Below, one piece after another: positions 4,762 through 9,530 of a stretch of 64,000 nucleotides of DNA. The notes under the pieces are model-generated. The model was not told the DNA's origin and made no database searches. It saw nothing but the letters and a program-made list of their open reading frames with translations. The stretch's first letter is position 1, and each line of letters starts with the position of its first letter. The position numbers were made by a program, and so were the translations under genes. The DNA comes from a virus (taxonomy: Duplodnaviria; Heunggongvirae; Uroviricota; Caudoviricetes), in the IMG/VR virus record IMGVR_UViG_3300042554_002914. One strand, given 5' to 3'.

Positions 4762-7700
4762 TCAGGACAAGATGTTGGTGATCATAGCGCCAGAACCGAT
4801 AAGACCAGATGCACCGAGGCCAACCAAGTTAACCACACGTTCGATGGTGATTTCAGCACGCACGACACGGCGTTCGCGAATGTAGTACTCCAATTTGTTA
4901 TCGTAAAGGCTCTTTATCCTCTACATCTTTGTATTTCTACAAAGTTCAGACTATATCTTTGCCTTACATCCTTATGTAAGACATTAGGCGCTCGTGGAGT
5001 TTTCATCTGTTCTAGATTACTAACTCTAGTCGTTGAACGTTCGTTTTCTCCCGAAAACGCTTCGCTGCTGATTGCCATGGTTTGAAGTTCAAACGTTAGG
5101 GTCCCAGCAATTCACCTAATTTCTTTTTATGTCAGACCCCAGTAGTTAAGGACGGACAGCGGGTGTTCCTGTGAGTTGATCATTTTTGTTAGCGTAAAGG
5201 TTATTTATCCTTCACTTCTTTACATTTCTGCAAAGATCAGACTATATCTTCTTCCTGAAATTTCTTATCAATCCGGTAACATGACTATCAGGTAGATTTA
5301 AGTGTCGTGCGAACTTGCGAATTGCTGGTTTACCCAGCTCTACCCAAAGTTCAAACAATTCATCAAACCTAGACCATAACTCTTTTCTCGATCTGGGGTT
5401 ATTTATTCCCCTTACCTTTAGAGACAAGGTTTTCGAGATTTTCAGTTTATGCTCTTCAGTCATTTTTCTACCAGTCCAGGGATGATTTGACTTATCCTTG
5501 AAATGATTTTTATGCCAGTCACTGTTTTTTCTTTTAGCTTCTTCTGAGCTTCCTAATTTGGGGGAAATTAAACTAATCTCCCTTGAACCTAGCCCCCATT
5601 GTTTTGAACTTTTCCAAATTGCCCACCATAATTTTTTATTATGGGGTTGGGATAAACTTAAAAGTAAATGGGCTATGTAGTGTTCTCTCCGGGTCAGCAT
5701 TACTAGGTTTGATACTTCATCATTCCCTCCACAACAAATAGGAATAATGTGATGTTTTTCAAGCCCATTTTTGCTTCCCCTTCGTTTGGGGATTGGCCGA
5801 AGTAAAAGTAAACGTGATGTGATAAGATTCCAATACCACTTTTCCCATTTATTAAGAAAGTGACATTCTATCAGGAGTGGGGCACTCGTGGATGGGTTAT
5901 TATTTTCGGTATTCACCATCTAGTCGTTGAACCTTTTGACTACAACTCTATTATAGCATAGAGTCCGAAATAGTCAACTTGGCTGCTGATTACCATAGCT
6001 TTCAAACTTTCGTTTGAAGCCGTAGGCTTCCCAGCAATTCACCCCATTGATCTGCGGATCAGGCAGATAATTTGACGTTACCGTCAAACCACGCATTCAA
6101 CTCGTTTAAAAGAAACGATGTTATTAACATACGTGTAACTGAAGGCCGGAGTCGCAGCATTAGCACCACCCGCAGGCATGATCGAATCAGAAGGGCCGTT
6201 GGGGCTGTAGAACAGGAGGATGCCATTGGCGGGGAAGACAGGCTGCAAGGAGCCGTCGTTGGCCAAATAACGCCCTTCAGCTACGCGCAGGCCACGCTCA
6301 AGACCGAAGTAGCGAGCGATGACATCTGTGTCGATGCTATTGGCGGAGGTGTACTTGATACGATCAAGGATCGCTTCGTTGGTCAGCAAGAGGTCGAAAA
6401 CCGAAGTTCCAAGAACAGCGGAGTTCGGACGAATGCCGATCTGGTTGGCAACAGCACGCTTCAGGGTCAGGATGTCCTCAATGGGATTAGAGGTTGCACC
6501 AGACCATGCGGCAGGGCCAGTGGCTGTGCCATAAGCGGTGTTGAAGGCGGTCCAGGTTGTAAAACCAAGACCAGTTTGTGAGCCAGGAGTCCCATTGTAG
6601 GGCTCGTATGGATTGTAGCTGCCAGTCACTGAAACAGCTTGAGCAACGGTGTACTCGTAGCTGTTCATTCATTATGTTATCGCGAGGGCTCTTTATCCCT
6701 TGCTTCTGCATGTTTCTATGCAGTTCAGACTATATCATCGTTTTGTAAACAAAACGTCAGGCGCTCGTGTCAGCTTCATTACTGTTCTAGTAGTATGCTG
6801 TTAGTCGTTGAACGTTCCGTCAATCCCTTGACGGCTTCGCTGCTGATTACCATAGCATCAAACTTTCGTTTGAAACCGTAGGTTTCCCAGCAATTCACCC
6901 AATTTTCTAAATGAGATTAATCTCATAGGGCCAATGTGTTTAGCCTAGACATCGCGTTGCGAGTCTCGATGGCGCGTAGCATTTGTTAACTCAGCGGCTC
7001 TTTATCCACTGATTCATTACCTTGTCGTTGGTAATGTTCAGACTATATTATTGCCCCACTATGTACACGATTACTGTACTTTGTAAGACATTGGGCGCTC
7101 GTGTCAGCTTCATTACTGTTCTAGTAGTATGCTGTTAGTCGTTGAACGTTCCGTCAATCCCTTGACGGCTTCGCTGCTGATTGCCCACGCGGGGGTTCCA
7201 GCAATTCACCCAATTTATAGTGGACCTACGCTGCGATCGAAATCGTTCGTAAAAAATAATCCACTTGTGCAGGACCTTCTCCTGCGTTTTCGATTCAATA
7301 ATGTTATCGCAAAGATTTTATTCTATGCTTCTTTACATTTCTGTAAAGTTCAGACTATATCTTCACCCCTGTTTTTCTTTCTTAGCTTAGCCATATGCTC
7401 ACGGGCAATCTGCCTATGGGTTTCAGACTTTTCTTTATCCGCCCAGTACTTTTTGGCGGACTCACTTCTCTTTTCCTTTTCCTCTTCAGTTTGAACCCTT
7501 CCTCTATTAGCTTCGTGAGCTTTTTTAAGTGTTTTTTCGGGCAGGGATTTACCCATCTTGGTTTTACTAAGTCTTTCTCGCATTTGCTTGGACTTAGGTC
7601 TTCCTTTCTCGGCTGCCCCCGGGGCAATACCGAATGAGGTCTTTTGTAGGGAAGTAGCTAAAATAGATGTACGTGGTCGGTAGGTAATGGCGCCTTCTCC

Positions 7701-9530
7701 GCATTTAACTCCCAACATCCTTCTAACTGCATACCAGTGTTTTACTGAGTTAGCACCTTTCGCAAGGAGGACATGGGCTATGAAGTGTTCTCGGATTGTT
7801 AGTTTTACTCTGTTTCCTTTGGAGTTATCCCCACCGTCACACTTAGGTATGATGTGATGGACGTGGTATCCCCTTTCCTTGGAGATTCCTCTATACTTCC
7901 TGGAGGAGCAGAGTTCGTGGTACCATTTTAACCATTTGTTAGGGTGCTGGGCGCTCGTGGATGGGTTATTATTTTCGGTATTCACCATCTAGTCGTTGAA
8001 CCTTTTGACTACAACTCTATTATAGCATAGAGTCCGAAATAGTCAACTTGGCTGCTGATTGCCTTGTGTTTCAGAGAAGTCACTCCTGAAACCGTCAGGG
8101 TTCCCAGCAATTCACCCAGTTTTTCTATCAGTTTTTCAACTGACGGAGGCTATCGATCTAACCTCTTCAGGCAATTCCCAAGCCACTACTTCTTGTTCAA
8201 GAGCGTAGGGCTCAGAGTCGTAACGGCTCTGTACATACGGAATGTTAGTCCCGTAAGCACGGCGGAAGTCGTTAATAGCAAATTGTTCCTTCAATTATGT
8301 TATCGCAGGGGCTCTTTATCCCCCACTTCTCTTTGTTTCCAAAGAGTTCAGACTATATCATCGTTTTGTAAACAAAACGTCAGGCGCTCGTGGAGTTTTC
8401 ATCTGTTCTAGATTACTAACTCTAGTCGTTGAACGTTCCGTCAATCCCTTGACGGCTTCGCTGCTGATTACCATAGCATCAAACTTTCGTTTGAAGCCGT
8501 AGGCTTCCCAGCAATTCACCCAATTTTTCATAACCCCTCACGGAGTTAAGCGGCATATGGAATACCGAAGCGCAGGATACGTCCTGCACGAGTTGGCGTG
8601 TCTACCACCGGTGCTATGAATAATATACAAAACTTAACGTTTTGCTCTGCATGTTTCCATGCAGTTTAGACTATATCATCATCTTTGCCTAAGCAAAGAG
8701 TCGGGCGCTCGTGGAAAGATTATTCTTGGGTCAGTCACTTTCTAGTCGTTGAACCTTCTTACTTCACTCTTATTATAGCAACAAGAGACCCGAAGTAAAC
8801 TTGGCTGCTGATTGCCTCTTTTGCGTAGCAAAAGTAAGGTGTCCCAGCAGTTCACCCGATTATTCGACAGGGGTCACCCCCTGAAGGAACCTCATTGATT
8901 CGCAATGTTGGTAGACGGTAGCATGAAACCTTGCGCGAGGGTGGTGAGACATTTGTTAACGTAGAGGCTCTTTATTCCCTACCTCTCTTTGTTTCCAAAG
9001 AGTTCAGACTATATCATCGTTTTGTAAACAAAACGCCCGGCGCTCGTGGAGTTTTCATCTGTTCTAGATTACTAACTCTAGTCGTTGAACCTTCCTTTTC
9101 TCCCGAAAAGGCTTGGCTGCTGATTACCATAGCTTTCAAACTTTCGTTTGAAGCCGTAGGCTTCCCAGCAATTCACCGGATTTTCTTTGTTAAAAACAAA
9201 GCCACTCCTTTAAATGGGCAATATGTTATCGCAAAGGCTCTTTATCCCTTGCTTCTACATGTTTCCATGTAGGCCAGACTATATCATCATCCTATAACTC
9301 CCATGCTGAGGAGTCAAGGAGCTGGGCGCTCGTGGAGTTTTCATCTGTTCTAGATTACTAACTCTAGTCGTTGAACGTTCCGTCAATCCCTTGACGGCTT
9401 CGCTGCTGATTGCCTCTTTTGCATAGCAAAAGTAAGGTGTCCCAGCAATTCACCCAGTTTTCTGCCATCATTAAAATGACAGGGACCCTAATTAATCCAC
9501 ACCTGCGTAGGTCTGTTGTAGATTCATCAT
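4762..9530 (-). CDS. Major capsid protein, 351 aa, 10 exons: 9530-9495, 9218-9214, 8949-8898, 8620-8564, 8291-8161, 7295-7259, 6979-6942, 6669-6131, 5180-5149, 4890-4762
   Basis: Exons sum to 1056 nt in one stop-free frame MMNLQQTYAGVDPILTTLAQGFMLPSTNIANFIAPVVDTPTRAGRILRFGKEQF...NPIEDILTLKRAVANQIGIRPNSAVLG...GSGAMITNILS*; VDPILT and G.RPN motifs and position after protease/decoration genes fit an HK97-fold MCP. Confidence 0.9.
4891..5148 (-). mobile_element. Group I intron 9 of MCP gene (258 nt, ORF-less)
   Basis: P GAATTGCTGGG, Q AATCAGCAG, R TTCAACGACTA, S AAGATATAGTC; 5' exon ends in U, intron ends in G. Confidence 0.9.
5242..5919 (-). CDS. Intron-encoded HNH homing endonuclease with NUMOD3-like tail
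   Basis: HHIIPICCGG...NLVMLTRREHYIAH motif; HPWTGRKMTEEHKLKIS repeat. Confidence 0.9.
   Translation of the reverse strand: MVNTENNNPSTSAPLLIECHFLNKWEKWYWNLITSRLLLLRPIPKRRGSKNGLEKHHIIPICCGGNDEVSNLVMLTRREHYIAHLLLSLSQPHNKKLWWAIWKSSKQWGLGSREISLISPKLGSSEEAKRKNSDWHKNHFKDKSNHPWTGRKMTEEHKLKISKTLSLKVRGINNPRSRKELWSRFDELFELWVELGKPAIRKFARHLNLPDSHVTGLIRNFRKKI
5950..5977 (-). promoter_or_regulatory. Sigma70-type promoter inside intron 8, upstream of HNH ORF
   Basis: TTGACT-N16-TATAAT with extended -10 TG, about 30 nt before ATG 5919. Confidence 0.7.
6670..6941 (-). mobile_element. Group I intron 7 of MCP gene (272 nt, ORF-less)
   Basis: P/Q/R/S; IGS GGCC pairs with exon GGCU; CAUU pairs with 3' exon AAUG; terminal G. 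Confidence 0.9.
6980..7258 (-). mobile_element. Group I intron 6 of MCP gene (279 nt, ORF-less)
   Basis: P/Q/R/S; IGS GUCCAC pairs with GUGGAU; GCGUAG pairs with 3' exon CUACGC; terminal G. Confidence 0.92.
7350..7988 (-). CDS. Intron-encoded HNH homing endonuclease with NUMOD3-like repeats
   Basis: HHIIPKCDGG...NRVKLTIREHFIAH motif; KGRPKSKQMRERLS and MGKSLPEKTLKK repeats. Confidence 0.9.
   Translation of the reverse strand: MVNTENNNPSTSAQHPNKWLKWYHELCSSRKYRGISKERGYHVHHIIPKCDGGDNSKGNRVKLTIREHFIAHVLLAKGANSVKHWYAVRRMLGVKCGEGAITYRPRTSILATSLQKTSFGIAPGAAEKGRPKSKQMRERLSKTKMGKSLPEKTLKKAHEANRGRVQTEEEKEKRSESAKKYWADKEKSETHRQIAREHMAKLRKKNRGEDIV
8019..8046 (-). promoter_or_regulatory. Sigma70-type promoter inside intron 5, upstream of HNH ORF
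   Basis: Identical to the intron 8 copy: TTGACT-N16-TATAAT. Confidence 0.7.
8292..8563 (-). mobile_element. Group I intron 4 of MCP gene (272 nt, ORF-less)
   Basis: P/Q/R/S; IGS GCCG pairs with CGGU; terminal G. Confidence 0.9.
8621..8897 (-). mobile_element. Group I intron 3 of MCP gene (277 nt, ORF-less, apparent terminal A)
   Basis: P/Q/R/S; IGS GUUC pairs with GAAU; AUGAG pairs with 3' exon UUCAU; frame requires ...ATATTA|TTC. Confidence 0.85.
8950..9213 (-). mobile_element. Group I intron 2 of MCP gene (264 nt, ORF-less)
   Basis: P/Q/R/S; IGS GUGG pairs with CCAU of the micro-exon; terminal G. Confidence 0.9.
9219..9494 (-). mobile_element. Group I intron 1 of MCP gene (276 nt, ORF-less)
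   Basis: P/Q/R/S; IGS GUCC pairs with GGAU; begins with in-frame TAA; terminal G. Confidence 0.9.

Follow-up and report, generated by a model that had tools for sequence, protein, structure and literature searches.

A predicted 5-nucleotide exon between two group I introns in the major capsid gene of a freshwater cyanophage

Introduction

The mitochondrial cox1 gene of placozoans contains a 1-nucleotide (nt) exon between two group IB introns, which has been proven by RNA-seq (Osigus et al. 2017, PMC5436844). In fungal mitochondria, tandem ("side-by-side") group I introns are represented by mS917a/b in rns of Endoconidiophora resinifera and cox3-i2 of Hypomyces aurantius (PMC6279837), and PMC12308204 cites Xavier et al. 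(2012) for fungal exons of 3 bp. Among phages, exon skipping has been documented for orf142 of Staphylococcus phage Twort, which carries three similar group I introns (PMC3073962, citing Landthaler and Shub 1999). Group I introns are present in the capsid genes of Cluster J mycobacteriophages (PMC3706429), and the capsid gene of the crAss-like Zeta group consists of five fragments and four intervening segments, three of which bear protein domains characteristic of group I introns (Yutin et al. 2021, PMC7886860). Here, we analyze a 64,000-nt stretch of DNA (the window) from the IMG/VR virus record IMGVR_UViG_3300042554_002914 (Caudoviricetes), in which the major capsid gene, encoded on the minus strand, appears to contain a 5-nt exon, CCCAU, flanked by two group I introns.

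We consider it highly probable (roughly 0.87) that CCCAU is a genuine exon located between two independent, mobile group I introns, whose sites lie 5 bp from each other in the phage's sole capsid gene. The host genome of this gene is that of a freshwater (lake) cyanophage of roughly 280 kb. The capsid gene of this whole phage group has been annotated as fragments because gene callers cannot see a 5-nt exon, and knowledge of the micro-exon gives the true capsid protein. The locus also offers a natural test of the distance down to which two neighboring self-splicing ribozymes still work, with natural controls among close relatives that carry intron 1 alone, intron 2 alone, both, or neither.

The micro-exon and the capsid reading frame

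Read along the minus strand, the sequence runs ...GATAACATATTG (to position 9219), then C9218 C9217 C9216 A9215 T9214, then T9213 TAAAGGAGTGGC..., with G9219 as the final base of intron 1 (...CATATTG) and T9213 as the first base of intron 2 (TTAAAGGAGTGG...). An earlier reading of these letters without database searches (the sequence-only reading) had placed CCCAT at 9214 to 9218 and assigned the ends of both introns; re-reading of the minus strand shows these assignments to be exact. Exon 1 reads ATG ATG AAT CTA CAA CAG ACC TAC GCA GGT GTG GAT in full and is followed by TAATTAGGGTCC..., and joining GAT, CCCAT, and TCTC yields codons for D-P-I-L.

The intron-free homologues P0056 and P0073 align to ten pieces of the window in tblastn searches, and the segments 9530-9495, 9218-9214, and 8949-8898, together with seven later exons (Table 1), form a single open frame of 1056 nt. 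The largest exon matches Phage_cap_E (PF03864) and major-head PHROGs, and the predicted peptide across the joined exons is ...YAGVDPILTTLAQGF... The peptide GVDPILTT is encoded by all 103 intron-free loci from IMG/VR, which use every Pro codon and either ATT or ATC for Ile, and DPILT is also kept by more distant full-length proteins. The earlier claim that CCCAT is necessary for V-D-P-I-L-T thus holds both in the spliced frame and in the comparison with these loci. Without CCCAT, exon 1 and exon 3 (36 + 52 nt) join out of frame, giving a 48-codon peptide followed by a stop, which confirms the frameshift expected upon skipping; retention of intron 1 or intron 2 ends translation after 12 or 14 codons. 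As judged from the sequence, the reading frame and the conservation of D-P-I-L would require CCCAU in the mature RNA. The micro-exon does not vary among the six double-intron sequences.

Judged by capsid protein, the nearest relative in culture is Synechococcus phage S-CBWM1, which is 67.6% identical and has no introns. No full-length spliced protein with the exact exon 8 of the window was present among the proteins looked up, and the intron-free contigs nearest to the window bear the exon signatures of single-intron relatives. P0032, a protein with an "MPILTT..." start, was considered as a form that keeps intron 1 and lacks intron 2 and was dropped, as it is only 92% identical.

Table 1. Positions of the capsid gene and of the features around the micro-exon in the window
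Feature	Positions	Strand	Description
Major capsid gene (lambda gpE type, PF03864)	4762..9530	minus	10 exons, 9 group I introns; spliced length 1056 nt, 351 codons
Exon 1	9495..9530	minus	12 codons, ATG ATG AAT ... GTG GAT; tblastn with intron-free homologues P0056 and P0073
Intron 1	9219..9494	minus	276 nt, without open reading frame (ORF); guide GUCC 9486-9483; terminal G 9219
Micro-exon CCCAU	9214..9218	minus	Pro codon and first two bases of the Ile codon; based on frame and D-P-I-L conservation
Intron 2	8950..9213	minus	264 nt, without ORF; guide GUGG 9205-9202; terminal G 8950
Predicted P1 hairpin of intron 2	9202..9217	minus	C9217-G9202, C9216-G9203, A9215-U9204, U9214.G9205 (splice site), U9213-A9206, U9212.G9207; loop 9211-9208
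Exon 3	8898..8949	minus	52 nt, T CTC ACC ACC ... GCG AAT; tblastn

The two introns as separate ribozymes

Both introns match the full length (model positions 1-253) of the Rfam family RF00028 with scores well above its gathering score of 50 bits: intron 1 at 9255-9518 (85.9 bits, E 2.9e-22) and intron 2 at 8985-9223 (97.4 bits, E 1e-25). These matches do not overlap, and each intron is found singly in relatives, as expected of two separate ribozymes with no nesting. A nested twintron was ruled out on the grounds that CCCAU is needed in the mRNA and that relatives carry each intron alone. Each intron is preceded by an exon U paired with a guide G and ends in G (U9495.G9486 and G9219 for intron 1, U9214.G9205 and G8950 for intron 2).

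In RNAalifold predictions, which found P1 through P9.1 of intron 2, 21 of the 85 pairs of intron 1 and 8 of the 83 pairs of intron 2 stay paired despite changes on both sides; these counts come from few, related sequences, and paralogous introns may have exchanged entire hairpins, which would account for part of the changes. The alignment of double-intron sequences, made up of the window and four contigs, varies at about 60 of its 546 positions. No variation is seen in these five within the micro-exon, the final 14 nt of intron 1, or P1 to P4 of intron 2, and the variable positions, mostly paired, are in P2, P3, P6, P7.1/7.2, P9, and the terminal hairpin, with the helices intact. Both ribozymes are under structural constraint in the double-intron members. 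In the RNAalifold predictions for both introns, two hairpins lie between ACGACUA and the 3' strand of P3; these P7.1/P7.2-like hairpins suggest that the introns are subgroup IA-like, similar to that of T4 td.

Introns 1 and 2 are 66% identical. The hairpins beside a 53-nt block that is shared by both introns (see below) differ, which suggests an exchange of modules between paralogous introns.

Pairings at the splice sites

The P1 hairpin of intron 2 was predicted by RNAalifold without guidance. It contains the pairing of GUGG (9205-9202) with CCAU (9217-9214) proposed in the sequence-only reading, with the U.G pair at the splice site. The exon side of this helix is 4 nt long and falls entirely within the micro-exon; relatives that have only intron 2 show the same 4-bp contact, and there, too, the next exon base faces a C. 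A possible P10 of intron 2 would pair the first 3 nt of exon 3, UCU, with GGA (9208-9206). In P1 of intron 1, exon GGAU pairs with guide GUCC (G9498-C9483, G9497-C9484, A9496-U9485, U9495.G9486). The sole possible pairing of this intron with its 3' exon is a P10 of 2 bp (C9218-G9487, C9217-G9488), and the equivalent P10 in L130, a locus with intron 1 only, comprises 1 bp, as read from its sequence. Accordingly, the pairings of the two introns overlap at one base, plus the bond next to G9219. An alternative register of the intron 2 P1, seen in the Rfam alignment as well as in the minimum-energy junction fold, has a G9219-C9201 pair and a bulged C9216.

A guide that starts with G at intron positions +8 to +11 and forms at least 4 bp with the exon end is present in 7 of the 9 introns of the capsid gene; shuffled sequences pass this rule in 4% of cases per intron, giving a P value of about 5e-9, with criteria that were picked after inspection of the data. 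This stricter rule was used in place of a looser P1 test (any position, wobble pairs allowed), which about 50% of the shuffles passed.

The sequence alone would permit a boundary shifted by one, as the base after the 5' splice site and the base after the terminal G are both T (CCCAT/T...G/T versus CCCATT/...GT/, slashes marking splice sites). The exon would then have 6 nt (CCCAUU) and intron 2 would extend from 9212 to 8949, with an identical mRNA. We regard this shift as very unlikely: the 5' splice site would then have a U-A pair rather than U.G, and the intron would end in U rather than G, whereas 8 of the 9 introns of the capsid gene end in G and all 9 follow an exon U. The 5-nt exon is favored over the 6-nt version because it retains the U.G pair and the terminal G.

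The exception to the terminal G is intron 3 (8621-8897, minus strand), which terminates in A (...GTATATTA/TTCATAGC); its junction, AAT/TTC, is present in the intron-free contigs L004 and L194.

Relatives with one intron or both

Both introns are present in the window and in five further IMG/VR contigs from different samples, each of which was retrieved under more than one locus identifier (L081 to L087, L117, and L129). Examples of IMG/VR contigs whose source samples contain this genotype are 3300044846_005229 and 3300042569_002782. One of these contigs, 279,339 bp long and bearing direct terminal repeats, is rated 100% complete and has all its capsid matches at a single locus. With a single capsid locus in a complete genome, the phage must depend on the double-intron capsid gene, from which we infer accurate removal of both introns.

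Intron 2 alone is found in 6 loci (263 nt in L088; about 935 nt in L090, L095, L101, L111, and L114) with the sequence GAT CCCAT/TTTTTAGAGTGGC...AACAAATG/TCTC. Intron 1 alone is found in 13 loci (L098, L100, L102 to L106, L108 to L110, L112, L130, and L148), 12 of which read GTGGAT/TAATTAGGGTCCC...CACTGG/CCAATC; L130 has a longer form of 958 nt. Each single intron occupies exactly the site that it has in the double-intron arrangement, and each intron also has long forms that include a gene for an HNH homing endonuclease (phrog_655). Since each intron occurs alone in relatives and has long forms with an HNH endonuclease, each is, or formerly was, separately mobile. The micro-exon would then have originated from two independent mobile introns with insertion sites 5 bp apart. 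This poses an evolutionary puzzle: ordinary homing should erase a neighbor 5 bp away, yet the double state exists.

The exon flanks track the introns, with GTG GAT beside intron 1 and CCC ATT CTC ACC ACC beside intron 2, and the double-intron sequences combine the upstream flank of the intron 1 type with the downstream flank of the intron 2 type. Most intron-free alleles read GTA GAT CCG/CCT ATT CTG (the slash here separating alternative codons) and contain neither 4-nt target.

Among the 103 intron-free alleles, GTG GAT, which includes the intron 1 target GGAU, is seen in only 3, and CCC AT, which includes the intron 2 target CCAU, in only 5. Whether an allele can hold or resist each intron may depend on its choice of synonymous codons.

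RNA-derived contigs

Several contigs without introns provide information on splicing of the capsid gene in the relatives. The 1560-nt contig L149 (Logan, SRR6435861) matches every exon of the genomic contig behind L109 (85 kb) with 100.000% identity, lacks all introns, and contains the junction GTGGAT/CCAATC. L004 and L153 to L155 (from samples 3300012770, -777, and -772 of the Joint Genome Institute) are 100% identical to the genomic locus L088 over the exons and 1671 nt upstream; their junction, GATCCCAT/TCTCACC, shows intron 2 removed. L194 (positions 1-364) and L195 (1-354), from samples 3300012758 and -761, retain only intron 2 of the capsid introns that they span, with L195 additionally beginning within the last few bases of intron 0. 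L196 (1-290; sample -766) retains only intron 3. We read the intron-free contigs as transcripts because such mixtures of intermediates on identical exons resemble splicing intermediates rather than DNA variants. The contigs show that, in single-intron relatives, both intron types are excised exactly at the predicted bonds. Introns 2 and 3 may be the slowest splicers of the capsid gene.

Two other features of these contigs deserve mention. The terminal 95 nt of L004 (5743-5837) duplicate part of the large capsid exon (L088:5035-5129) with no downstream continuation and are probably an assembly artifact. Five Logan contigs from different runs (L149 to L152 and L156) all start 20 to 30 nt upstream of the capsid ATG and reach the following gene, ending 280 to 485 nt after the capsid stop. 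Their common start may reflect a late transcript that is abundant and whose 5' end is defined.

Several points weigh against a genuine, accurately spliced micro-exon. Both P1 and P10 are short, and the isolated hairpins are no more stable than those of shuffled sequences. The RNA origin of the intron-free contigs is deduced from their sequence and not from sample records. A 53-nt block (GTTCAACGACTAGAGTTAGTAATCTAGAACAGATGAAAACTCCACGAGCGCC; approximately 9356-9408 and 9088-9140, minus strand), which covers P7, P7.1/7.2, and the 3' strand of P3, is 100% identical in both introns and could permit mis-pairing. Finally, exact-pattern scans of viral and metagenome contigs detected no RNA of the double-intron genotype, whether spliced, half-spliced, or skipped. 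The scans used a pattern for spliced and skipped forms (GCAGGTGTGGAT, 0 to 6 nt, TCTCACCACCCTCGC) and one for removal of intron 1 (GCAGGTGTGGATCCCATT), both against viral and metagenome contigs, and a third for removal of intron 2 (ACATATTGCCCATTCTCAC) against viral contigs only. The 37 metagenome matches to the second pattern were unrelated, mostly ABC-transporter genes encoding ...DEPFAGVDPI... These blank scans carry little weight because the collections contain few transcript assemblies.

Splicing order and exon skipping

In the proposed mechanism, intron 1 would recognize exon 1 through GGAU/GUCC and define its 3' end at G9219, while intron 2 would recognize the micro-exon by pairing CCAU with GUGG, its 5' splice site being set at U9214.G9205 and its 3' end at G8950. 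Each ribozyme would follow the ordinary two-step route, and the two ligations would produce GAU-CCC-AUU-CUC. The sequence-only reading had both ribozymes using the same 5 nt, as the 3' site of one and for P1 of the other, and took this to imply ordered splicing or a risk of skipping. The implied order is not supported in that form: the intron 2 contact covers 4 nt (C9217 to U9214), the P10 of intron 1 has at most 2 bp, the two overlap at a single base, and each intron splices alone in relatives, so that base-pairing does not impose an order. As the intron 2 contact lies within the micro-exon and intron 1 needs almost nothing on its 3' side, neither intron appears to need the other to be removed first. 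Chemically, splicing could proceed in either order, given that each intron splices alone in relatives at the same site and with the same contacts: removal of intron 2 first would leave intron 1 as in the intron 1-only relatives, and removal of intron 1 first would leave intron 2 as in the intron 2-only ones.

With the same anatomy, splicing could still be strongly ordered, either because the intron 2 P1 holds the micro-exon, and possibly G9219, so that intron 2 has to leave first, or because crowding delays one of the introns. The G9219-C9201 register of the Rfam alignment and the minimum-energy fold would hide the terminal G of intron 1 for as long as the intron 2 P1 stands, only one unpaired base separates that G from this P1, and coupling is conceivable for two cores of about 270 nt tethered by 5 nt. 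Retention of intron 2 in two RNA intermediates of single-intron relatives indicates that it is not a fast splicer. However, the pairing energies are small and do not exceed those of shuffles, and all exon contacts of each intron are already available in the unspliced precursor. We view a strong order as possible but doubtful, the genuine micro-exon between two independent introns being common to both versions. It is rather improbable, in our estimate, that 5 bases are near the smallest spacing for two autonomous group I ribozymes and that the pair behaves as a coupled unit with a kinetic order or measurable skipping. If it did, the intron 2 P1 and the 3' splice site of intron 1 would compete for shared bases, perhaps including the terminal G, and the resulting order or skipping would limit or time late capsid production.

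A defective double-intron gene, whose introns leave as one unit or fail to leave at all, would imply crippled or helper-dependent phages. The blank scans for RNA of this genotype are compatible with such a defect, as is the skipping documented among neighboring similar introns of Twort (PMC3073962, citing Landthaler and Shub 1999). In addition, as read from the sequence, the beginning of exon 3 offers the P10 bases of intron 1 an alternative partner (UCU with AGG), and P10 is therefore no safeguard against skipping. A hybrid fold of the two introns, and hence skipping, is conceivable. Nevertheless, the P3 helices differ (CUGGGUG/CGCCCAG versus UCCGGUG/CGCCGGG, slashes separating strands), and a hybrid P3 would hold one or two mismatches. 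The double-intron genotype recurs in six assemblies with the 5 nt and their flanks invariant and with compensatory changes in the helices, and it is found in a complete genome with one capsid locus. We therefore give a defective gene hardly any credence and retain the interpretation of CCCAU as an exon joined by two functional introns.

Other introns of the capsid gene

Rfam searches detect eight group I introns within 4927-9518. The ninth, intron 8 (950 nt), has no match at the gathering threshold yet carries the common core sequence. Intron 5 (865 nt) contains an ORF for a 212-amino-acid HNH homing endonuclease (7350-7988, minus strand; phrog_655, E 3e-24).

Relatives of the window carry introns at additional sites. 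One is located right after codon 3 (L086:1103-1379; ATGATGAAT/CATGGCGGTTCC...ACATAATG/CTACAACAG); it is also present in L081 to L085, L088, L090, L095, L098, L101, and L111, is absent from the window, and leaves a coding first exon of 9 nt and a second exon of 27 nt. Since its target and guide, GAAU/GUUC, are those of intron 3 of the window, one intron type seems to have spread to a second site that has only 4 nt in common with the first. Intron 1-only relatives have another intron, of about 215 nt, within the exon 3 of the window (after ...CTCCCT; L109:2774-2988). It leaves an 18-nt exon, TCCACCAACATTGCGAAT (L109:2988-3005), ahead of the intron 3 site, and both introns flanking this exon are gone from the transcript-like L149.

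Comparison with known systems

A close parallel is placozoan cox1, where a micro-exon between two separate group I introns was likewise overlooked at first, restores a conserved residue, and has been explained by a second intron inserting beside an existing one. In that case, however, the P1 target of the downstream intron is not within the exon, whereas the 5 nt of the phage hold the full 4-nt target. The phage case also differs in its bacteriophage host and in involving IA-like paralogues of one family. The tandem introns of fungal mitochondria are, similarly, neighbors in one gene with zero to a few exon bases between them, for which ectopic insertion of a paralogue has been proposed. They are organellar, encode LAGLIDADG endonucleases, and have an uncharacterized splicing pattern, whereas the phage introns interrupt a structural gene, have relatives with HNH-type endonucleases, and each occur alone in related genomes.

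Among phage systems, orf142 of Twort shares with this locus the presence of several similar group I introns in one gene, and mis-joining between neighboring ribozymes has been observed there (PMC3073962). It has 3 introns, as opposed to 9 in this capsid gene and 10 or more in its relatives, and we found no report of a few-base exon in the portion of the Twort literature accessible to us. The crAss-like Zeta group resembles the present phage in having a major capsid gene broken by intervening segments; those introns are known through their protein domains, with no ribozyme boundaries or micro-exons described. Full-text literature searches turned up no exon of a few bases separating two group I introns, whether in phages or in bacteria. 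The arrangement is known from organelles, and, as far as we could find, its occurrence in a phage, together with natural single-intron controls, is new.

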